Source: Eledone cirrhosa | Lineage: Eukaryota | Reading direction: 5' to 3' | DNA length: 64,000 nt | NCBI GenBank assembly: GCA_964016885.1 | Contig: OZ024744.1 | Span: 95,356,001-95,420,000, forward strand | Shown: in pieces, positions 1 to 38,660 of the stretch | Layout of the letters: each line of letters starts with the position of its first letter | How positions within the stretch are numbered: the stretch's first letter is position 1 | Made by a program: the position numbers and the translations under genes | The notes under the pieces: model-generated | Databases searched by the model: none | What the model was told of the DNA's origin: nothing | Seen by the model: the letters and a program-made list of their open reading frames with translations, nothing else

Positions 1-3000
1 CTGTATCACATTAACTCTTAACATCCTGTACCGCATGAACCCACATTAACAAGACATTCTTGAAAAGTACAAAACAGTACTATGACTGTATTACATTAAC
101 TCTTAACGTCCTGTACCACGTGAAACCACATTGATAAGACATTATTGAAAAGTATAAAACAGTACTATGAGTGTATCACGTTAACTATTAACATCCTGTA
201 CCACGTGAAACCACATTAACAAGACATTGTTAAAAAGTACAAAACAGTCCTGTATCACATTAACTCTTAATATCCTGTACCACATGAAACCACATTAACA
301 AGACATTGTTGAAAAGTACTAAACAGTACTGTGACTGTATCACATTAACTCTTAACATTCTGTACAGCATTAAACTACATTCACAAGACATTCTTGAAAA
401 GTACAAAACAGTACTATGACTGTATCACATTAACTCTTAACATCCTGTACCACATTAAACCACATTAACAAGACATTGTTGAAAAGAACAAAACAGTACT
501 ATGACTGTATCACGTTATCTCTAATATCCTGTACCACATGAAACCACATTAACCAGAGATTCTTGAAAAGTACAAAACATTACTATGATCGTATCACATT
601 AACACTTAACGTCCTGTACCACGTGAAACCACTTTAAGAAGACATTCTTGAAAAATTCAAAACAGTACTATGACTGTATCACATTAACTCTTAAGATCCT
701 GTACCACATGAAACCACATTGATAAGACATTATTGAAAAGTATAAAACGGTACCATGACTGTATCACATTAACTCTTAACATCCTGTACCACGTGAAACC
801 ACATTAACAAGACATTCTTGAAAAGTACGAAACGATACTATGACTGTATCACATTAGCTGTTCTCATCCTGTACCACATGAAACCACATTAGCAAGACAT
901 TCTTGAAAAGTACAAAACAGTATTATGACTGTATCACATTAACTCTTAACATCCTGTACCACATGAAACCACATTAACAAGACATTCTTGAAAAGTACAA
1001 GATAGTACTATGACTGTATCGCATTAACTCTTAACATCCTGTACCACATGGACCACATTAACAAGACATTCTTGAAAAGTACACTACAGTACTATGACTG
1101 TATAATATTAATTCTTAACATCCTGTACCACGTGAAACCACATTAACAATACGTTCTTAAAAAGTTCAAAACAGTACTATGACTGTAGCACATTTACTCT
1201 TAACATCCTGTACCACATGAAACCACGTTAACAAGACATTCTTGAAAAGTACAAAACAGTACTATGACTGTATCACATTTGCTCTTAACATCCTGTACCA
1301 CATGAAACCACATTAACAAGACATACTTGAAAAGTACAAAACAGTACTATGACTGTATCACATTAACTGTTAACATCCTGTACCACATGAAACTACATTA
1401 ACAAGTCATGGTTGAAAAGTAAAAAACAGTACTATGACTGTATCACATTAACTGTTAACATCCTGTACCACATGAAACCACATGAACAAGTCATTGTTGA
1501 AAAGTACAAAACAGTACTATGACTGTATTACATTAACTGTTAACATCCTGTACCACATGAAACCACATTAACAAGACATTCTTGAAAAGTACAATACAGT
1601 ACTATGACTGTATCACATTAACTATTAACATCCTGTACCACGTGAAACCACATTAACAAGACATTGTTGAAATGTACAAAACAGTACTATGACTGTATCA
1701 CATAAACTCTTAACATCCTGTACCACGTGAAACCACATTAACAAATCATGGTTGAAAAGTACAAAACAGTTCTATGACTGTATCATATTAACTCTTAACA
1801 TCCTGTACTACATGAAACCACATTAACAAGACATTCTTAAAAAGTTCAAAACAGTACTATGACTGTATCACATTAACTCTTAACATCCTGTACCACATGA
1901 AACCACATTAACAAGACATTGTGGAAAAGTACAAAACAGTACTATGACTTTATCATATTAACTCTTAACATCCTGTACCACATGAATCCACATTAACAAG
2001 ACATTGTTGAAAAGTACAAAACAGTACTATGACTGTATCACATTAACTCTTAACATCCTGTACCACATTGGCCACATTAACAAGACATTCTTGAAAAGTA
2101 CAATATAGTACTATGACTGTATCACATTAACTCTTAACATCCTATACCACGTAAAACCACGTTAACAAGACATTCTTAAAAAGTTCAAAACAGTACTATG
2201 ACTGTATCACATTAACTCTTAACATCCTGTACCACATGAAACCACATTAACAAGACATTGTTGAAAAGTACAAAACAGTACTATGACTGTATCAAATTAA
2301 CTCTTAACATCCTGTACCACATGAAACCACATTAACAAGACATTGTTGAAAAGTACAAAACAGTACTATGACTGTATCACATTAACTCTTAACATCCTGT
2401 ACCACATAAAACCACATTAACAAGACATTCTTGAAAAGTACAAAACAGTACTATGACTGTATCACATTAACTCTTAACATCCTGTACCACATAAAACCAC
2501 ATTAACAAGACATTCTTGAAAAGTACAAAACAGTACTATGACTGTATCACGTTAACTCTCAACATCCTATACCACGTGAAACCACATTAATAAGACATTG
2601 TTGAAAAGTACAAAACAGTACAATGACTGTATCACATTTATTATTAAGACCCTGTACCACGTGAAACCACATTAACAAGATATTGTTGAAAAGTACAAAA
2701 CAGTACAATGACTGTATCACATTAACAAGACGTTCTTGAAAAGTACAAAACAGTACTATGACTGTATCACATTAACTGTTAACATCCTGTACCACATGAA
2801 CCCACATTAACAAGACATTCTTAAAAAGTTCAAAACAGTACTATGACTGTATCACATTAACTCTTAACATCCTGTACCACATGAAACCACATTAACAAGA
2901 CATTGTTGAAAAGTACAAAACAGTACTATGACTGTATCACATTAACTGTTAACATCCTGTACCACATGAAACCACATTAACAAGACATTGTTGAAAAGTA

Positions 3001-6000
3001 CAAAACAGTACTATGAGTGTATCACATTAACTGTTAACATCCTGTACCATATGAAACCACATTAACAAGACATTCTTAAAAAGTTCAAACAGTACTATGA
3101 CTGTATCACATTAAGTTTTAACATCCTGTACCACATGAAACCACATTAACAAGACATTGTTGAAAAGTACAAAACAGTACTATGACTGTATCACGTTAAC
3201 TGTTAACATCCTGTACCACATGAAACCACATTAACAAGACATTGTTGATAAGTACTAAACAGTACTATGACTGTATCACATTAACTGTTAACATCCTGTA
3301 CCATATGAAACCACATTAACAAGACATTCTTAAAAAGTTCAAACAGTACTATGACTGTATCACATTAACTCTTAACATCCTCTACCACATGAAACCACAT
3401 TAACAGGACATTGTTGAAAAGTACAAAACAGTATTATGACTGTATCACATTAACTGTTAACATCCTGTACCATATGAAACCACATTAACAAGACATTCTT
3501 AAAAAGTTCAAACAGTACTATGACTGTATCACATTAACTCTTAACATCCTGTACCACATGAAACCACATTAACAAGACATTGTTGAAAAGTACAAAACAG
3601 TACTATGACTGTATCACATTTATTATTAACATCCTGTCCCACGTGAAACCACATTAACAAGACATCGTTTAAATGTACAAAACAGTACTATGACTGCATC
3701 ACATTATTCTTAACGTCCTGTACCACATGAAACTTCATTAACAAGTCATTGTTGAAAAGTACAAAACAGTACTATGACTGTATCACATTAACTGTTAACA
3801 TCCTGTACCACGTGAAACCACATTAACAAGACATTCTTGAAAAGTACAAAACAGTACTATGACTGTATCACATTAACCCTTAACATCCTGTACCACATGG
3901 ACCACATTAACAAGACATTCTTGAAAAGTACAAAACAGTACTATGACTGTATCACATTAACTGTTAACATCCTGTACCGCGTGAAACCACATTAACAAGA
4001 CATTGTTTAAAAGTACAATACAGTACTATGACTGCATCACATTAACTCTTAACATCCTGTACCACGTGAAACCACATTAACAAGACATTGTGGAAAAGTA
4101 CAAAACAGTACTGTGACTGTATCTCCTTAACTGTTAACATCCTGTACCACATGAAACCACATTACCAAGACATTGTTGAAAAGTACAAAACAGTACTATG
4201 ACTCTATCATATTGACTCTTAACATTCTGTACCACATGAAACCACATTAACAAGACATTGTTGAAAAGTACAAAACAGTACTATGACTGTATCACATTAA
4301 CTGTTAACATCCTGTACCACGTGAAACCACATTAACAAGTCATTCTTAAAAAGTACAAAACAGTACTATGACTGTATCACATTAACTCTTAACATCCTGT
4401 ACCACATGAAACCACATTAACAAGACATTGTTGAAAAGTACAAAACAGTACTATGACTGTATCACATTAACTGTTAACATCCTGTACCACGTGAAACCAC
4501 ATTAACAAGTCATTCTTAAAAAGTTCAAAACCGTACTATGACTGTATCACATTAACTCTTAACATCACATACCACATAAAACCACATTAACAAGACATTC
4601 TTGTAAAGTACAAAACAGTACTATGACTGTATCACATTAACTCTCAACATCCTGTACCACATGAAACCACATTAACAAGACATTGTTGAAAAGTACAAAA
4701 CAGTACTATGAATGTATCACATTAACTCTTAACATTCTGTACCACATAAAACCACATTAACAAGACATTCTTAAAAAGTTCAAAACAGTACTATGACTGT
4801 ATCACATTAACCCTTAACATCCTGTACCACATGGACCACATAAACAAGACATTCTTGAAAAGTACAATACAGTACTATGACTGTATCACATTAACTCTTA
4901 ACATCCTGTACCACATGAAATCACATTAACAAGACATTGTTGTAAAGTACAAAACAGTACTGTGACTGTATCACATTTATTATTAACATCCTGTACCACG
5001 TGAAACCACATTAACAAGACATTGTTGAAAAGTACGCAACGGTACTATGACTGTATCACATTAACTCTTAACATCCTGTACCACATGAAACCACATTAAC
5101 AAGACATTCTTGAAAAGTACAAGATAGTACTATGACTGTATCGCATTAACTCTTAACATCCTGTACCACATGGACCACATTAACAAGACATTCTTGAAAA
5201 GTACACTACAGTACTATGACTGTATAATATTAATTCTTAACATCCTGTACCACGTGAAACCACATTAACAAGACATTGTTGAAATGTACAAAACAGTACT
5301 ATGACTGTATCACATTAACTGTTAACATCCTGTACCACGTGAAACCACATTAACAAATCATGTTTGAAAAGTACAAAACAGTTCTATGACTCTATCACAT
5401 TGACTCTTAACATCCTGTACCACATGAAACCACATTAACAAGACATTTTTGAAAAGTACAATACAGTACTATGACTGTATCACATTAACTCTTAACATCC
5501 TGTACCACATGAAATCACATTAACAAGACATTGTTGTAAAGTACAAAACAGTACTGTGACTGTATCACATTTATTATTAACATCCTGTACCACGTGAAAC
5601 CACATTAACAAGACATTGTTGAAATGTACAAAACAGTACTATGACTGTATCACATTAACTGTTAACATCCTGTACTACGTGAAACCACATTAACAAATCA
5701 TGTTTGAAAAGTACAAAACAGTTCTATGACTCTATCACATTGACTCTTAACATCCTGTACCACATGAAACCACATTAACAAGACATTTTTGAAAAGTACA
5801 AAACAGTACTATGACTGTATCACATTAACTGTTGACATCCTGAACCACATGAAACCACATTAACAAGTCATTGTTGAAAAGTACAAAACTGTAGTATGAC
5901 TGTATCACATTAAGTTTTAACATCCTGTACCACATGGACCTACATTAACAAGACATTGTTGAAATGTGCAAAACAGTACTATGACTGCATCACATTATTC

Positions 6001-8370
6001 TTAACGTCCTGTACCACATGAAACCACATTAACAAGACATTGTTGAAAAGTACAAAACAGTACTATGACTGTATCACATTAACTCTTAACATCCTGTACC
6101 ACATGAAACCACATTAACAAGACACTGTTGAAAAGTACAAAACAGTACTATGACTGTATCACATTAACTATTAACATCCTGCACCACATGAAACCACATT
6201 AACAAGACATTGTTGAAAAGTACAAAACAGTACTATGACTGTATCACATTAACTATTAACATCCTGCACCACATGAAACCACATTAACAAGACATTGTTG
6301 AAAAGTACAAAACAGTTCTATGACTGTATCACATTAACTGTTAACATCCTGTACCACATGAAACCACATTAACAAGACATTCTTGAAAAGTACAAAACAG
6401 TACTATGACTATATCACATTAACTCTTAACATCCTGTACCACATGAAACCACATTAACCAGACATTCTTGAAAAGTACAAAGCTACTATGACTGTATCAC
6501 ATTAACTCTTAACATCCTGTACCACATGAAACCACATTAACAAGATATTGTTGAAAAGTACAAAACAGTACTATGACTGTATCACATTAACTCTTAACAT
6601 CCTGTACCACATGAAACCACATTAACAAGATATTGTTGAAAAGTACAAAACAGTTCTATGACTGTATCACATTAACTCTTAACATCATGTACCACGTGAA
6701 ACCATATTAACAAGACATTCTTGAAAAGTACAAAACAGTACTATGACTGTATCACATTAACTCTTAACATCCTGCACCACATGAAACCACATTGACAAGA
6801 CATTGTTGAAAAGTACAAAACAGTACTATGACTGTATCACATTAACTCTTAACATCCTGTACCACATGAAACCACATTAGCAAGACGTTCTTGAAAAGTA
6901 CAAAACAGTAGTATGACTGTATCACATTAACTATTAACATCCTGTACCACGTGAAACCACATTAACAAGACATTGTTGAAATGTACAAAACAGTACTATG
7001 ACTGTATCACATTAAGTCTTAACATCCTGTACCACGTGAAACCACATTAACAAATCATGGTTGAAAAGTACAAAACAGTTCTATGACTCTATCACATTAA
7101 CTCTTAACATCCTGTACCACATGAAACCACATTAACAAGACATTGTTGAAACGTACAAAACTACTATGACTGTATCACATTAACTGTTAACATCCTGAAC
7201 CACATGAAACCACATTAACAATTCATTGTTGAAAAGTACAAAACTGTAGTATGACTGTATCACATTAAGTTTTAACATCCTGTACCACATGGACTTACAT
7301 TAACAAGACATTGTTGAAAAGTACAAAACAGTACTATGACTGTATCACATTAACTCTTACCATCCTGTACCACATGAAACCACATTAACAAGACATTCTT
7401 GAAAAGTACAAAACAGTACTATGACTGTATCACATTAACTATTAACATCCTGTACCACATGAAACCACATTAACAAGACATTCTTGAAAAGTAGAAAACA
7501 GTACTATGACTGTATCACATTAACTGTTAACATCCTGTACCACGTGAAACCACATTAATAAGACATTGTTGAAAAGTACAAAACAGTACTATGACTGTAT
7601 CAATTTAACTCTTAACATCCTGTACCACGTGAAACCACATTAACATATCATGGTTGAAAAATACAAAACAGTTCTATGACTGTATCACATTAACTCTTAA
7701 CATCCTGTACCACATGAAACCACATTAACAAGACATTCTTGAAAAGTACAAAAAAGTTCTATGACTATATCACATTAACTCTTAACATCCTGTACCACAT
7801 GAAACCACATTAACCAGACATTCTTGAAAAGTACAAAACTACTATGACTGTATCACATTAACTCTTAACATCCTGTACCACATGAAACCACATTAACATG
7901 TCATTGTTGAAAAGTACAAAACAGTACTATGACTGTATCACATTAACTGTTAACATCATGTACCACGTGAAACCACATTAACCAGACATTCTTGAAAAGT
8001 ACAAAACTACTATGACTGTATCACATTAACTCTTAACATCCTGTACCACGTGAAACCACATTAACAAGACATTGTTGAAAAGTACACAACAGTACTATGA
8101 CTGTATCTCATTAACACTTAACATCCTGTACCACGTGAAATCACATTAACAAGACATTCTTGAAAAGTACAAAACAGTACTATGACTGTATCACATTAAC
8201 TATTAATATCCTGTACCACATGAAACCACATTAACAAGACATTTTTGAAAAGTACAAAACAGTACTATGACTGTATCACATTAACTGTTAACATCCTGTA
8301 CCACATGAATCCACATTAACAAGACATTGTTGCAAAGTACAAAACAGCACTGTGACTGTATCATGTTAAA
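1..8370. repeat. 85-bp-unit minisatellite array (~98 units, open at the window start); lies upstream of the first visible TOGARAM1 exon, probably intronic
   Basis: Unit CTGTATCACATTAACTCTTAACATCCTGTACCACATGAAACCACATTAACAAGACATTCTTGAAAAGTACAAAACAGTACTATGA. Units start at 1 and 86, and the array continues with point variants to ~8370. Confidence 0.97.
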
Positions 8371-9006
8371 AATTTGATTGTATTTTTTCTTCCTTTGCAA
8401 AATTTCATAAGGATCTGCCCTTATGTAAAAATACAATAAACTTTTGAATTAACCAACCTGTTTTTAGATATTTTATGTTAAATCATTACAGAATGTTAAG
8501 AGATATTACTACAAATGTTCACATCTGTCCACCAGTAAAGATACTATAAACGTTTGAATTAACACATCTGTATTAGATATTTTCTGATAAATCATTACAG
8601 AATGTTAAGAGTTAATACTGCAAATTTTCACAACAATCTGCCCTCCAGTAAAGATACTATAAATATTTTAATTAACAAACCTGTTTTAGATATTTTCTAC
8701 TAAACCATTACAAGATATTAAGATACTATAAGAATCTGAATTAACAAACTGTTTTTCAATATTTTCTACTAAATTATTACAGGACGTTAAGAATTAATGG
8801 GCATTTTTGTAGAATCCTGTATTTTCACAAATTGTTGGTGGTTTTAAAAGGAATGGGACAACATTTTCCATGATTATTATCTCAATTGCCTACAAAGTTA
8901 AACATTGAACTTCACAAACTTGAATTCGTATAGAATTGTTAAATTATTGCTACTTCACGTAAAAACAGAATTGAAACTGAATATGAGATCTATTTATTTT
9001 ATTTAG

Positions 9007-9155
9007 GAATTAGACAAAGTCATTGGTCGCTTATTAGCTTTGATGGCTGTCAGCAAAGAATTCATCAGGAATGATGTAGAAAAGGCATTTGATGCTATGG
9101 TTGATAATATCACCTGTACGAAGGCTTTGCCGATCCTCATAACCAAAGGTTTAAA
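9007..9155 (+). CDS. TOGARAM1: TOGARAM1/FAM179B (crescerin) internal exon, TOG3 domain
   Basis: tttag|GAA...TTAAA|gtaag. Translates ELDKVIGRLLALMAVSKEFIRNDVEKAFDAMVDNITCTKALPILITKGL, resembling (from memory) vertebrate TOGARAM1 ELD...SNTFIREDVDKALRAMVNNVT. Ends phase 2. Confidence 0.9.
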
Positions 9156-9222
9156 GTAAGTAAAAATATTTAATATCTTTTGCTAATCTTCATAACCAGA
9201 CTTTGAAAGTAAAAATTATATA

Positions 9223-9253
<31 letters not shown>

Positions 9254-9450
9254 TGTTATATATTGTTATATATATATATATATATATTGTTATATATATA
9301 TATATGATCAAATGTTAATAAGGTTCATTGATTACTCAATGAATATAGTTTTACAATAGATTCAAAGCACTCAACAAGGAATTTTTCTGGAGTTATTAAT
9401 ATTATTCAAAATATTAATAAATGAAGACGTTCACATAATCAAAATATATG

Positions 9451-9512
9451 TTATATTATATATATTTCGGAGGTACTGTGCTGTTTTTTTAGTACGTCCT
9501 CATCAGATAAAA
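9451..9512 (-). ncRNA. Hammerhead ribozyme motif, inverted copy in the left palindrome arm
   Basis: Minus strand reads TTTTAT-CTGATGA-GGACGTACT...AGTACCTCC-GAAA-TATATATA-ATATAA, with one stem I mismatch relative to the + copy. Confidence 0.62.
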
Positions 9513-9615
9513 TACATAAATTGATGTACGACATACCTCAACTGTCTTGATGGTTTAATTTCTGCCAAGACTGAAATTAAACCATCAAGACAGTTGAGGT
9601 ACATCAATTTATGTA

Positions 9616-9677
9616 TTTTATCTGATGAGGACGTACTGAAAAAACAGCACAGTACCTCCGAAATATATATAATAAAA
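9616..9677 (+). ncRNA. Minimal type-I hammerhead ribozyme motif
   Basis: Stem I TTTTAT(9616-21)/ATAAAA(9672-77). Core CTGATGA at 9622-28. Stem II GGACGTACTG/CAGTACCTCC with one C-C mismatch. GAAA at 9660-63. Palindromic short stem III TATATA. AUA cleavage triplet ends at 9671. Confidence 0.75.
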
Positions 9678-9738
9678 CATATATTTTGATTATGTGAACG
9701 TCTTCATTTATTAATATTTTGAATAATATATATATATA

Positions 9739-10639
9739 TCATCATCATCATCATTTTACATCCGCTTTTCCCTGCTTGCAAGGGTGGGACGGGTCTTATT
9801 CAGCACAGCATCTCTCCACTCGTCACGGTCCCTCGTCATCTCCACCATGAGCTTCAATGATCTGAGGTCTGTTCTCACCACCTCCGCCCATGTTTTTCGT
9901 GGTCTACCTCTACCACGTCTTCCTTCAACTGGCATTTCCTGGCACTTCTTCACCCATCGGTCATCCTCCATGCACATCACATGTCCATACCACCTCAGTT
10001 TCCTCTCCCGTACACTACATTCTATCCCTCTCAAACACAGTCTCTCTCTCAACACATTTATGCTGGGTCGTTCATGCACATTTACACTGCACATCCAACG
10101 GAGCATGCTTGCCTCATTTCTCTCCAGCCGTCGCATATCCTCTGCAGTTGCTGCCCATGTCTCACTACCATGCAGCATCGCGCTCCTCACACAGGCATCA
10201 TACAACCGGCCTTTCGTACGCAGGGAGAAACCCTTCTTTGTCAACAGAGGAAGCAGCTCCCTAAACTTCTTCCAACCCGTCCTTATTCTAGATACTATGG
10301 CCTCGGAACACCCTCCTCCCATGCTAATCTGATCTCCTAGGTACCAGAAGCTATCCACCACTTCTATAGCGCCCTCTTGCATTTGAAAAATGTGTCTATC
10401 AGTGCGACTTCTACTGTCTAATTTCCCTGTACATCTACTGCATACATATTTCTCCTTACCTGTTAGTTTGCCTGCTATCCCACTGCATCTCTTGTGTACC
10501 CAGGATCTGCATTGTGTGCATTTTATAGAATTTATGCCAGTTCCTTTTCTGCATATCGAACATGGCCATTTCCCTGACGGAATCAGGGTTTTGTCCTCTT
10601 TTCTACTCATCAACACTTTTGTCTTAGCTAGATTCACTC

Positions 10640-10640
<1 letters not shown>
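9739..10640 (-). mobile_element. 5'-truncated RTE-clade LINE (ORF2 C-terminus, ~294 aa intact, with PHD-like finger) and (GAT)n tail, inserted in (TA)n
   Basis: Motifs VNLAKTKVL...FWYLG...SRIRTGWKKF...LHGSETW...LRWYGHV...GRGRPRKTW are typical of the RTE ORF2 C-terminus. The 3' end is ...GCAAGCAGGGAAAAGCGGATGTAAAA(TGA)n. Confidence 0.9.
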
Positions 10641-10670
<30 letters not shown>

Positions 10671-10825
10671 ATATTTGGGAAGGGGTTCTAATATTGCCAG
10701 AAAAATATAGTAAAACACACTCACTGTTTGGTTTGGTTTGGTTTTCGCTTCAGTATATCTTTATATTTCTATAAATAATTTAGATGGCAATCAATGTTTA
10801 TCATTTAAAAGATATAAATATAAAT

Positions 10826-10880
10826 ATAGTCACTCAGAGTTCTTTTGTCACACATGTCTGTGACATCATCAGTGATTACC
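10826..10880 (-). ncRNA. Degenerate hammerhead-like motif in a (TA)n-flanked segment
   Basis: Minus strand: ATCA-CTGATGA-TGTCACA-GACATG-TGTGACA-AAAG... Core and stem II are present, but the GAAA and cleavage site are altered. Confidence 0.3.
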
Positions 10881-10964
10881 ATGATTATATGGTTCCTCCT
10901 GCTGTGTTCCTATAATATTTTCTTATATATATGTATACATATATATATGTATATATATATTGTA

Positions 10965-11136
10965 AACATGGTTGGTGTTAAGAAGGGCATCCAGTTGTAA
11001 AGAAAAACACCCAAAACACAGCTCCATTGGAGCAAGGTTCGGTGTGGCCAACTGGCCAGACTTGTCTCGTGACGTGGATGATCCATCTAACCCGTGCAAG
11101 CATGGGAAAATACACATTAAATGGCGATGGTGATGG

Positions 11137-11191
<55 letters not shown>

Positions 11192-11349
11192 TGTGGTGGT
11201 GATGATGATTGTGATGGTGATGGTGATGATGGTGATGGTGATGAATGTGGTGGTGATGATGATTGTGATGGTGATGGTGGTGATGATGATGATTGTGATG
11301 GTGGTGATGATTGTGATGGTGATGGTGGTGGTGGTGGTGGTGGTGACGT

Positions 11350-11384
<35 letters not shown>

Positions 11385-11435
11385 GTGATGATGATGATGA
11401 TGGTGGTGATGGTGATTGCAGTAGTGGTGGTGACA

Positions 11436-11462
<27 letters not shown>
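10965..11462 (+). mobile_element. SINE 3' fragment with RTE-type tail, followed by an expanded (GAT/GGT)n microsatellite
   Basis: GGTTGGTGTTAAGAAGGGCATCCAG...CCCGTGCAAGCATGGGAAAATACACATTAAATG, then ~340 bp of GAT/GGT repeats. Confidence 0.75.
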
Positions 11463-11467
<5 letters not shown>

Positions 11468-11646
11468 CACCCTACAAACTCCCTATTGTTTCATTGTTAA
11501 TGTTTTAAAAGTATTAAATTCTCAATGTGCCGCCATAGCCATCTAGTATATAAAGATTCCCTTTGCCTTTGAATCATTGTCTTCTTTCTTTTTTCGTTTT
11601 TTTTTTTCCTTTTTTTAACCTTTTTCCCCCACATTATCTCTTCAAG

Positions 11647-12552: not shown

Positions 12553-12785
12553 TAAAAGATACCTACATGAATGGACCTGTTATTTTTCTCTAAAAAAAAT
12601 GTTTCCTATTCCGGCCTGCCTGTCCCTTCAATCTTGTTCATTTCTCATTCTTTCTTCTGATGAAGGACTAACGTCCAAAACTTTAAGATACTCTTCCTGC
12701 TATTTCAAGCGTTAAATTTATATATTCCTTTCATATACTCTACCGTTTGTGTTGTTATTTCTCTTTACCTTTTACATATATATGT
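12457..12785 (+). mobile_element. Probable Penelope-like pLTR remnant: short inverted repeat around (TA)n plus a degenerate hammerhead motif
   Basis: TAACAGGTCCATTCATGTAGGCGTCTTTTATA-(TA)n-TATAAAAGATACCTACATGAATGGACCTGTTA. At ~12657 the sequence reads CTGATGAA-GGAC-TAAC-GTCC-AAAAC, i.e. GAAA changed to AAAA. Confidence 0.45.
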
Positions 12786-34705: not shown

Positions 34706-35114
34706 AAATAAGGTAGTTTTCACTTTTTGTTGGTAAAAATTAAACTTGTGGAGTGATTAGGCAACTGTTAATGAAGAGGCAGCTTACCAGATATATCTCT
34801 CAACGTGTATAATTGAGTCCTGCAAGATAATATTCCAGGTGTTAATCCATTAATCCATGGGTATTTTTCAGGTTTCAAGGTTGGCTGACTGGAGAGACTG
34901 GAGAGATGGAGGGATTGGATGGATGGGTGGCTAGTTGTGGTTGGTTTAAAATTGTTGCAGAAAGAATGTTTGAGAGTTAGACTGTTGTGTTAGAAGCAAG
35001 CAAATTTTTTTGTCATCATCAGCACTATCATCATCATCGCCATCAGCATCATTGTCATCTAATATTAAGTTTCCATGCTAACAGAGGTTGGATGGGTCAT
35101 CACAAACTAATTCA

Positions 35115-38100
35115 TTGAGCTGAAGAGACAGTTGATGAATGTAAGTTGAGCTGAAGAGACAGTTGATGAATGTAAGTTGAGCTGAAGAGACAGTTGATGA
35201 ATGTAAGTTGAGCTGAAGAGACAGTTGATGAATGTAAGTTGAGCTGAAGAGACAGTAGATCAATGTAAGTTGAGCTGAAGAGAGTTGATGAATGTAAGTT
35301 GAGCTGAAGAGACAGTAGATCAATGTAAGTTGAGCTGAAGAGACAGTAGATCAATGTAAGTTGAGCTGAAGAGAGTTGATGAATGTAAGTTGAGCTGAAG
35401 AGACAGTAGATCAATGTAAGTTGAGCTAAAGAGACAGTAGATCAATGTAAGTTGAGCTGAAGAGACAGTTGATGAATGTAAGTTGAGCTGAAGAGACAGT
35501 AGATCAATGTAAGTTGAGCTGAAGAGACAGTAGATCAATGTAAGTTGAGCTGAAGAGAGTTGATGAATGTAAGTTGAGCTGAAGAGACAGTAGATCAATG
35601 TAAGTTGAGCTGAAGAGAGAGTTGATGAATGTAAGTTGAGCTGAAGAGACAGTAGATCAATGTAAGTTGAGCTGAAGAGACAGTAGATCAATGTAAGTTG
35701 AGCTGAAGAGAGTTGATGAATGTAAGTTGAGCTGAAGAGACAGTAGATCAATGTAAGTTGAGCTGAAGAGACAGTTGATGAATGTAAGTTGAGCTGAAGA
35801 GACAGTAGATCAATGTAAGTTGAGCTGAAGAGACAGTAGATCAATGTAAGTTGAGCTGAAGAGACAGTAGATCAATGTAAGTTGAGCTGAAGAGACAGTT
35901 GATGAATGTAAGTTGAGCTGAAGAGACAGTAGATCAATGTAAGTTGAGCTGAAGAGAGTTGATGAATGTAAGTTGAGCTGAAGAGACAGTAGATCAATGT
36001 AAGTTGAGCTGAAGAGACAGTAGATCAATGTAAGTTGAGCTGAAGAGACAGTAGATCAATGTAAGTTGAGCTGAAGAGACAGTTGGTGAATGTAAGTTGA
36101 GCTGAAGAGACAGCAGATCAATGTAAGTTGAGCTGAAGAGACAGTTGATGAATGTAAGTTGAGCTGAAGAGACAGTAGATCAATGTAAGTTGAGCTGAAG
36201 AGACAGTAGATCAATGTAAGTTGAGCTGAAGAGACAGTAGATCAATGTAAGTTGAGCTGAAGAGACAGTTGATGAATGTAAGTTGAGCTGAAGAGACAGT
36301 AGATCAATGTAAGTTGAGCTGAAGAGACAGTAGATCAATGTAAGTTGAGATGAAGAGACAGTAGATCAATGTAAGTTGAGCTGAAGAGACAGTTGGTGAA
36401 TGTAAGTTGAGCTGAAGAGACAGTTGGTGAATGTAAGTTGAGCTGAAGAGACAGTTGATGAATGTAAGTTGAGCTGAAGAGACAGTAGATCAATGTAAGT
36501 TGAGCTGAAGAGACAGCAGATCAATGTAAGTTGAGCTGAAGAGACAGTTGATGAATGTAAGTTGAGCTGAAGAGACAGTAGATCAATGTAAGTTGAGCTG
36601 AAGAGACAGTAGATCAATGTAAGTTGAGCTGAAGAGACAGTAGATCAATGTAAGTTGAGATGAAGAGACAGTAGATCAATGTAAGTTGAGCTGAAGAGAC
36701 AGTTGGTGAATGTAAGTTGAGCTGAAGAGACAGTAGATCAATGTAAGTTGAGCTGAAGAGACAGTTGGTGAATGTAAGTTGAGCTGAAGAGACAGTAGAT
36801 CAATGTAAGTTGAGCTGAAGAGGCAGTAGATCAATGTAAGTTGAGCTGAAGAGACAGTTGGTGAATGTAAGTTGAGCTGAAGAGACAGTTGATGAATGTA
36901 AGTTGAGCTGAAGAGACAGTAGATCAATGTAAGTTGAGCTGAAGAGACAGTAGATCAATGTAAGTTGAGCTGAAGAGACAGTTGGTGAATGTAAGTTGAG
37001 CTGAAGAAACAGTAGATCAATGTAAGTTGAGCTGAAGAGACAGTTGGTGAATGTAAGTTGAGCTGAAGAGACAGTTGATGAATGTAAGTTGAGCTGAAGA
37101 GACAGTAGATCAATGTAAGTTGAGCTGAAGAGAGTTTATGATTGTAAGTTGAGCTGAAGAGACAGTAGATCAATGTAAGTTGAGCTGAAGAGACAGTAGA
37201 TGAATGTAAGTTGAGCTAAAGAGACAGTTGGTGAATGTAAGTTGAGCTGAAGAGACAGTAGATCAATGTAAGTTGAGCTAAAGAGACAGTTGGTGAATGT
37301 AAGTTGAGCTAAAGAGACAGTTGGTGAATGTAAGTTGAGCTGAAGAGAGTTGATGAATATAAGTTGAGCTGAAGAGACAGTAGATCAATGTAAGTTGAGC
37401 TGAAGAGACAGTAGATGAATGTAAGTTGAGCTAAAGAGACAGTTGGTGAATGTAAGTTGAGCTGAAGAGACAGTTGATGAATGTAAGTTGAGCTAAAGAG
37501 ACAGTTGGTGAATGTAAGTTGAGCTGAAGAGACAGTTGATGAATGTAAGTTGAGCTGAAGAGACAGTGGATCAATGTAAGCTGAGCTGAAGAGACAGTTG
37601 GTGAATGTAAATTGAGCTGAAGAGATAGTTGATGAATGTAAGTTGAGCTAAAGAGACAGTTGGTGAATGTAAGTTGAGCTGAAGAGACAGTTGATGAATG
37701 TAAGTTGAGCTGAAGAGACAGTAGATCAATGTAAGTTGAGCTGAAGAGACAGTAGATGAATGTAAGTTGAGCTAAAGAGACAGTTGGTGAATGTAAGTTG
37801 AGCTGAAGAAACAGTTGATGAATGTAAGTTGAGCTAAAGAGACAGTTGGTAAATGTAAGTTGAGCTGAAGAGACAGTAGATCAATGTAAGTTTAGCTGAA
37901 GAGACAGTAGATCAATGTAAGTTGAGCTGAAGAGACAGTAGATCAATGTAAGTTGAGCTGAAGAGACAGTTGATGAATGTAAGTTGAGCTGAAGAGACAG
38001 TAGATCAATGTAAGTTTAGCTGAAGAGGCAGTAGATCAATGTAAGTTGAGCTGAAGAGAGTTGGTGAATGTAAGTTGAGCTGAAAAGACAGTTGGTGAAT

Positions 38101-38660
38101 GTACGTTGAGCTGAAGAGACAGTTGATGAATGTAAGTTGAGCTAAAGAGACAGTTGGTGAATGTAAGTTGAGCTGAAGAGACAGTTGATGAATGTAAGTT
38201 GAGCTGAAGAGACAGTAGATCAATGTAAGTTGAGCTGAAGAGACAGTTGATGAATGTAAGTTGAGCTGAAGAGACAGTAGATCAATGTAAGTTGAGCTGA
38301 AGAGGCAGTAGATCAATGTAAGTTGAGCTGAAGAGACAGTTGATGAATGTAAGTTGAGCTGAAGAGAAAGTTGATGAATGTAAGTTGAGCTGAAGAGACA
38401 GTTGATGAATGTAAGTTGAGCTGAAGAGACAGTTGATGAATGTAAGTTGAGCTGAAGAGACAGTAGATCGATGTAAGTTGAGCTGAAGAGACATTAGATC
38501 AATGTAAGTTGACCTGAAGAGACAGTTGGTGAATGTAAGTTGAGCTGAAGAGACAGTATATAAATGTAAGTTGAGCTGAAGAGACAGTTGGTGAATATAA
38601 GTTGAGCTGAAGAGACAGTTGGTGAATGTACATTAAATAGTTAAGCTGAAGAAACAGTAA
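35115..38660. repeat. 31-bp-unit minisatellite (~113 units) with two main variants
   Basis: GAGCTGAAGAGACAG[TTGATG|TAGATC]AATGTAAGTT. Confidence 0.97.

Follow-up and report, generated by a model that had tools for sequence, protein, structure and literature searches.

This study revealed that the palindrome in an intron of TOGARAM1 of Eledone cirrhosa is a single insertion, made up of two head-to-head, 5'-truncated pseudo-LTR ends of a Hydra-clade Penelope-like element (PLE, a retrotransposon) within a (TA)n tract. In the window, i.e. the whole stretch of 64,000 nucleotides that was analysed, this locus is ordinary by itself and is one of many such insertions; the family behind it offers a usable test of the insertion mechanism. 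We consider it quite probable that the palindrome arose by reverse transcription of capped sense RNA from primers provided by both cut target strands. If this is true, the question of a sense versus an antisense template would be settled and the one-ended tail of these elements explained. Hundreds of young copies with readable ends provide exact coordinates (+1, +176 and +268 of the element) for a biochemical test, and the family copies already distinguish fold-back from two-strand priming.

Structure of the insertion

The whole palindrome is carried by the intron at 9157-11644 of TOGARAM1, a gene on the + strand whose downstream exon begins at 11645. The initial annotation had placed it in this gene, which is borne out by the identity of the upstream exon to an Octopus sinensis protein (Table 1); a PDB search with the exon gave no match. 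The palindrome of about 160 bp described at the same time is real. Its inverted arms (9394-9529 and 9599-9734) show 97% complementarity and extend inward as far as a spacer of 9-10 nt, and in the predicted fold 9399-9562 is paired with 9572-9729 through helices of 54, 74 and 28 bp. Of the limits originally proposed (9399..9729, with (TA)n on either side), the right one holds at 9729. On the left, the arm goes on for a further 92-97 nt to 9307/9302, and the full feature is 9302-9729. The former left limit is the mirror image of the short end, and the element extends 97 nt beyond it. In element numbering, where +1 is the A of a TCACT initiator-like motif and TATATAAA (TATA box) stands at -32, the whole left, long arm corresponds to +13 to +273 (window 9562-9302).

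The two arms are unequal: two substitutions in the left arm each break a ribozyme pair, and the right, short arm lacks 7 nt after 9598 and, with them, a conserved splice-donor-like motif. As the arms differ at 2 of 148 compared positions, the insertion is young. The deletion (9598-9599) sits in the arm that is sense to TOGARAM1. Loss of the donor-like motif may be due to chance, the deletion lying between two 3-nt repeats, or to selection against a cryptic donor.

An assembly artefact, in the form of a fold-back read chimera, has a practically negligible probability. No sequencing-run contig examined covers the entire stretch, which speaks for a chimera, but the arms differ by two substitutions, the 7-nt indel and the 97-nt tail, dozens of loci repeat the same build with fixed ends, and three runs, belonging to two studies, have contigs that contain opposite-strand joints. 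Contigs from four runs, of unrecorded kind, showed C>T and G>A family variants.

The right side of the palindrome adjoins a 5'-truncated LINE with a (CAT)n end, which we take to be of the RTE type, at 9739-10630 (-) within the (TA)n. A 334-aa open frame on the - strand (9756-10760) lies over this LINE, whose family was also found beside other element copies (locus L225). A (TA)n-TTG-TTATAT unit is present at 9272-9301 and again at 10640-10676, flanking the insertion and the LINE together; it may represent a target duplication, or merely a unit of the microsatellite.

Table 1 Features of the insertion in the window and map of the parent element (element positions carry a plus sign).
Feature	Position	Strand	Remarks
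TOGARAM1 exon, 5' of the insertion	9007..9156	+	96% identity to Octopus sinensis TOGARAM1-like protein
Left target flank	9217..9301		(TA)n microsatellite with TTG interruptions
Tail of long arm	9302..9398	-	element +177 to +268/+273; without counterpart in right arm
Long arm, portion common to right arm	9399..9562	-	element +13 to +176
Hammerhead motif, long arm	9451..9512	-	core (CUGAUGA) from 9506, predicted cut after 9457
Junction, hairpin loop	9562..9571	+	short arm begins at element +2; one base common to both arms
Short (right) arm	9562..9729	+	element +2 to +176
Hammerhead motif, short arm	9616..9677	+	core (CUGAUGA) at 9622, stem II 9629-9659, predicted cut after 9671
Right target flank	9730..9738		(TA)n; resumes at ~10640 after later LINE insertion
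Element, donor-like G/GTATGT	+38/39
Element, ribozyme core	+69
Element, ribozyme cut	+118/119
Element, short end	+176
Element, long end	+268		+273 in some copies
Element, ATG	+325
Element, unit			3.8 kb

Hammerhead motifs

Each strand carries a type I hammerhead motif, which comprises a 9-bp stem II with a C.C mismatch and an 11-nt loop, followed by GAAA, a 6-bp stem I and an AUA cut site. The self-complementary AUAUAUAU stands where a stable stem III would be. A hammerhead model gave two matches in the window, which form one inverted pair. A complete minimal type I hammerhead had been reported for each arm. The motif is indeed found on both strands, and the short-arm version is the commonest form among the fetched family copies, whereas the long-arm version is not intact: a substitution at 9490 breaks a stem II pair and another at 9453 breaks a stem I pair.

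Two checks had been suggested for this assignment. In the search against Rfam, no hammerhead model matched at E up to 10, and only generic hairpin matches were returned, all below the gathering score. Stem covariation was examined among 15 sequences of the window's own and sister families, which were chosen via a stem filter and are mutually related (both of which favour the result). Eight of the nine stem II pairs vary on both sides, 98.8% of cells are paired against 38-55% in slid controls, and two-sided change is absent from stems I and III. The covariation of stem II across these sister families is support for a hammerhead, not proof. In the sister families, A-U or G-U often takes the place of the first G-C pair of stem II. 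The 23-nt core had 7,092 exact matches in the genome, compared with none for the reversed control, and its occurrence thus exceeds chance.

With regard to known ribozymes, the minimal metazoan PLE hammerheads, in the parts of Cervera and de la Pena (2014, PMC4209133) devoted to them, are likewise of type I, with a long stem II and a short palindromic stem III, and opposite-strand pairs 100-700 bp apart are on record there. As monomers, they were not cleaved in vitro (PMC4209133). The conserved C.C mismatch of stem II and the AUA cut triplet distinguish the present motif from those described there. Non-LTR retrozymes, as presented in the relevant portion of a preprint (bioRxiv 10.64898/2026.07.22.740005), share the short non-coding unit, the type I hammerhead and kinship with PLE pseudo-LTRs. 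They are defined by tandem direct repeats, whereas the units of the insertion are inverted and derive directly from a coding element by truncation. We rejected this identity, which requires at least two tandem direct hammerhead units, as the inverted pair is the only arrangement present.

Parent element

When the 3.0 Gb Eledone cirrhosa genome was searched with the right arm, 1,227 candidates were found and 40 of them were scored. The window's own family has 916 exact 30-mer matches genome-wide. The 23-mer matches given above cover this family together with sister families; of the first 80 places, about 51 represent a sister family with 70-77% identity. The copy number is about a thousand, or several thousand if sister families are included. 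A DNA search with the ribozyme of a more distant sister family gave no candidates, so that family is absent from the samples described below.

Copies of the family are 5'-truncated, have fixed 3' ends and lie in (TA)n as their target. The palindrome end was first joined to GIY-YIG and RT sequence in three long copies, and in 17 of 20 loci selected by RT DNA the endonuclease and the same 3' end were found downstream. A search for longer genomic copies linked to these two domains had been suggested as a check; the copies found confirm the Penelope-like origin, the domains being those of the Hydra clade. In four tandem copies the palindrome segment recurs 5' of the ORF, which identifies the segment as the pseudo-LTR. 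Partial tandem copies and inverted 5'-truncated copies, by which a pseudo-LTR is recognized (the tail being optional), were both found.

The RT contains a YRDD motif and has a weak match to PF00078 (E 0.0011). Pfam gave no match for the endonuclease and missed most of the RT, the motifs being read from translations. Across 23 long loci there was no intact ORF, and the longest open piece was 444 aa. The element protein exhibits RW(R/C), DKT and YRDD, a CxCx5C linker, no CCHH, and CxxC/CxH round a conserved E and N; an N-terminal RWR/RWC, which is of the RWK type, and DKT where DKG would otherwise stand are present in the four tandem copies. The definition of the Hydra clade given in PMC8557442 includes the CxCx5C linker, the absence of CCHH, and CxxC and CxH flanking E and N. 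By its protein motifs, its (TA)n target and its hammerhead, the element is assigned to this clade, within which it is a new family. Neptune and Nematis were rejected, as the element has neither a CX2-5CxxC linker nor CCHH in its EN.

The clade as characterized in the relevant sections of Craig et al. (2021, PMC8557442), including Hydra-1_Obim of Octopus bimaculoides, is also alike in its C-terminal GIY-YIG, RW(R/K) and DKT, in the linker, the absence of CCHH and the CxxC and CxH motifs just listed, and in its 3'-end hammerhead and (TA)n target. Nevertheless, the protein and the ribozyme stems of the window family differ from those of Hydra-1_Obim when compared by eye. The unit is 3,810 bp at locus L055, whereas Hydra-clade units are generally under 3 kb, a typical and not a defining trait; the greater length is due to a long 3' UTR. 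The family also has a clear pseudo-LTR with tandem and inverted copies, while the list in PMC8557442 has Hydra-1_Obim without a pseudo-LTR.

Some of the loci (L095, L096 and L097 on C4; L174 and L176 on C1) have shared flanks and are segmental duplications of one insertion. Three database proteins (P0047, P0057 and P0064), named GATA zinc finger-like, uncharacterized and LRR coiled-coil, match the RT region of the element and are likely mis-annotated retrotransposon pieces.

Pairing of long and short ends

In nearly all scorable head-to-head insertions of the family, one arm has a tail of 92-97 nt that its partner lacks. Pair classes were assigned by hand from BLAST tables in three sets of loci. 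The first set, which is score-biased and includes 30 loci found with the tail, comprised the 106 best-scoring loci at 92 distinct places. It contained 47 head-to-head insertions; interrupted or complex cases were excluded (L084, L099, L106 and L137), and all 43 scored pairs combined one long with one short end. For the second set, predictions were written beforehand, and the first 80 of the 7,092 core matches by position were taken (79 after one duplicate). An inverted partner was present in 40 of these 79 unselected insertions: 30 were long plus short, one was short plus short (L220), one was ambiguous (L173) and eight had a lost end. The proportion of 30/31 corresponds to P=1.5e-8 against 0.5, and that of 30/32 to P=1.2e-7. 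The third set was drawn from a second Penelope-like family, of which the first 30 of 16,696 matches represented 28 places. Twelve of these were inverted, with 10/10 scorable pairs long plus short (one called by eye) and two unscorable. A long plus long pair was found separately in this second family at L019, and the pairing is therefore a strong tendency with exceptions.

The 5' reach of the two arms was also compared. It was greater in the short arm in 24 pairs, greater in the long arm in 14 and equal in 5 among the 43 pairs of set 1; the corresponding figures for the 30 pairs of set 2 were 19, 8 and 3. Arm junctions show an overlap of 0-12 nt, or filler. The arms overlap by at least 100 bp in 13 of the 79 insertions of set 2.

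These results bear on fold-back or self-priming, in which the first cDNA or an antisense RNA would snap back and serve as its own template for the second arm, an idea put forward for the Penelope palindromes of rotifers in a part of PMC3846280. Junctions often lie within short quasi-palindromes near +2 to +10 and private variants are common to both arms, both of which favour such a process. However, a snap-back copy is limited to the sequence of its template, yet the short arm is the longer one in the 5' direction in the 24/43 and 19/30 pairs just mentioned, the tail being in the long arm. In these pairs, each arm thus holds sequence that is missing in its partner, which makes a fold-back copy of the long arm impossible. 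In addition, many pairs have zero overlap between their arms, junctions often show filler and not a hairpin, and the +1 ends with an extra G described below indicate sense RNA. We therefore regard fold-back as unlikely.

Partner arms have the same base at 208 of 239 polymorphic positions, compared with 136 expected. They differ by 3.5%, versus 5.6% between insertions, and eight variants are private to a pair. Gene conversion or one source locus would produce the same agreement. At L149, one tail piece is placed tail-to-tail across (TA)n.

Ends of the arms

Among the 124 arms of set 1 and the 20 long loci, 59 begin within +1 to +20, 19 of them exactly at +1, and a single arm begins between -1 and -7; most of the remaining arms run upstream. 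In set 2, the 90 anchors, some of which are spurious, comprise 36 that run upstream, 8 at +1, 8 at +6 and 0 at -1. Over half of the arms extend upstream of +1. The equal number of ends at +6 and +1 in set 2 suggests that local quasi-palindromes also shape the junctions. An extra G precedes +1, where the element has C, in 10/19 cases in set 1 plus the long loci and in 6/8 in set 2, although it can also be read as a base of the opposite arm in 5/10 and 4/6 of these, respectively. An extra G is a known trace of cap copying. Judged from DNA, +1 would be the start of a capped sense RNA.

At the other extremity, the long end was located by direct reading; BLAST gave a position near +281, because the alignment ran into (TA)n. 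In the BLAST tables of sets 1 and 2, the ribozyme cut (+119) is not the start of any arm. This is relevant to two further accounts of the tail asymmetry, namely a symmetric intermediate that is trimmed by the endonuclease or resolved by it, the latter being the origin given for the tail in a section of PMC8557442, and a circular, ribozyme-cut RNA template, as suggested in part of PMC4209133. In their favour, the sequence round the short end is AT-rich and has itself been the target of later insertions (L106, L216). Nevertheless, a ribozyme-cut circle predicts ends at +119 and no +1 edge, which is the opposite of what was observed, and the in vitro data of PMC11167929 trace the tail to two start sites of the RT. 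Taken together, these accounts appear quite improbable.

The donor-like motif is exact in 57 of 80 arms and conserved across sister families. A pyrimidine-rich YAG (TAG or CAG) was observed about 17 nt before the ATG (L055 oriented 3215-3545; L063, L047 and L059). The donor-like site at +39 and this YAG suggest a putative 5'-UTR intron in which the two start sites and the ribozyme would lie. A search pattern written for a single presumed splice junction of the element had 0 matches, which has no bearing on splicing generally.

Mechanism of insertion

In the account that we favour, namely priming by both target strands, the endonuclease would cleave both strands inside (TA)n. One 3' end would prime at the near site (+176) and the other at the far site (+268) of an uncleaved, unspliced RNA. 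Short AU patches adjoin both sites and could base-pair with the target. Each cDNA would then proceed toward the RNA cap, and the two cDNA ends would be united by microhomology or filler. The near-strict pairing suggests that a single complex serves both sites; with strand displacement, one RNA might suffice for the two. To our knowledge, PLE-type RTs have no RNase H. The ribozyme would be duplicated because it is located between the cap and the nearer start site. For arms that extend upstream of +1, the template would have to be a tandem read-through RNA, or the RT would have to jump between templates. The long plus short build, the greater 5' reach of either arm in different pairs, the +1 edge and the lack of a start at the ribozyme cut favour two priming events on capped, uncleaved sense RNA over fold-back.

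Related systems offer partial precedents. Penelope/Poseidon elements (Drosophila, Adineta Pen2a and anole PAc) are alike in their head-to-head inverted 5'-truncated copy, their one-ended tail, a pseudo-LTR with TATA and a TCACT initiator-like motif, and two fixed outer ends. In contrast, the tail here measures 92-97 nt instead of 30-40 bp and is confined to the 5' UTR; the insertion contains no ORF, so only the two ends remain. In LINE-1 twin priming, both target strands likewise prime and a head-to-head inversion is joined by microhomology, but each arm copies a different part of one RNA, priming being at the poly(A) tail and at a random internal position. The present insertions differ in that the two start sites are fixed and a single stretch is often copied in both arms.

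The experiments presented in the relevant sections of PMC11167929 show that the anole Poseidon protein cuts and extends both strands in vitro and starts reverse transcription at two internal RNA sites, ribozyme cleavage being unnecessary; the protein is predicted to be a dimer. Our model agrees with these data, but no difference in start site between the strands was seen in that study, which counts against it. Inverted truncated copies, one-ended tails of 30-40 bp and opposite-strand hammerhead pairs are already in print (in parts of PMC8557442, PMC3846280 and PMC4209133), and passages of the first two treat the way in which PLEs produce such copies and tails as an open question. The pairing counts, the cap-like G and the two-strand priming account were not found in the literature searched, which was largely without subscription papers.

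Predicted consequences for the host pre-mRNA

It had been proposed that the sense ribozyme is masked by its antisense arm in the TOGARAM1 pre-mRNA. The secondary-structure model agrees: it predicts a 156-bp duplex in which stem II has a pair probability of 0, and forcing the ribozyme fold would cost about 101 kcal/mol. The same model makes the active fold of the monomer improbable even alone. The term self-silenced ribozyme was an overstatement, as the arrangement is an ordinary insertion product (an inverted partner occurs in 40/79 unselected insertions) and PLE hammerhead monomers were not cleaved in the assays of PMC4209133. Given this lack of monomer cleavage, masking probably changes little. 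The predicted ribozyme-hiding dsRNA is likely a passive by-product.

A more elaborate view would be that the palindrome has been retained as a regulatory device of TOGARAM1, with A-to-I editing or the antisense arm acting as a switch for the ribozyme. Two stem-breaking changes are present in the antisense ribozyme and none in the sense one, which is intact, the donor-like motif is lost from the sense arm, and hyper-editing is very high in octopus (in the data given in PMC5625713), all of which are in line with such a role. However, three mutations are too few to show selection, the insertion is young and by extrapolation one of about a thousand, and unmasking would have to overcome both the predicted cost and a monomer fold that is itself unfavourable. 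This makes a regulatory role very unlikely.

ADAR editing of the arms would be plausible. In the relevant parts of PMC5625713, octopus and lizard Penelope are reported as heavily hyper-edited, and octopus as showing exceptional hyper-editing and long, near-perfect dsRNA whose repeat source is unassigned. A rough extrapolation from the 13/79 insertions of set 2 gives roughly a thousand hairpins with at least 100 bp of overlap for the family group. The self-contained 100-170-bp palindromes of these elements are a candidate dsRNA source for octopus hyper-editing. The combined proposition, that the palindromes record one complex priming both strands at two fixed sites of a capped, uncleaved sense RNA and that a major source of the long dsRNA behind octopus hyper-editing lies in the thousands of copies, double-stranded from the outset, that several such families have left, is put forward tentatively, its chances being slightly less than even.

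Other hammerhead-bearing families and repeats

The second Penelope-like family has a CxxC linker, a CCHH-type endonuclease and 16,696 exact ribozyme-core matches. At its loci (L222-L251, C1:0.3-11.4 Mb), it exhibits a 60-nt tail and the same long plus short bias. Several of its 5' ends lie near -55 from the core, and open RT-EN pieces reach 428 aa. Further hammerhead families cluster in the same (TA)n tracts (L010:2230-2580; L118:470-810; L089:2030; L117:435), and the single palindromes at L010 and L118 also look long plus short. Stem III is palindromic in each hammerhead family, with letters that differ between families.

At 12657 (+) of the window, a CUGAUGA core followed by a short stem, also present at L118:340, is possibly another hammerhead-bearing repeat. 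Finally, the window contains a 31-nt tandem unit in about 110 copies (about 35100-38650), an 85-nt tandem unit near 8000-8430, and a skewed composition from its start (1-8400).
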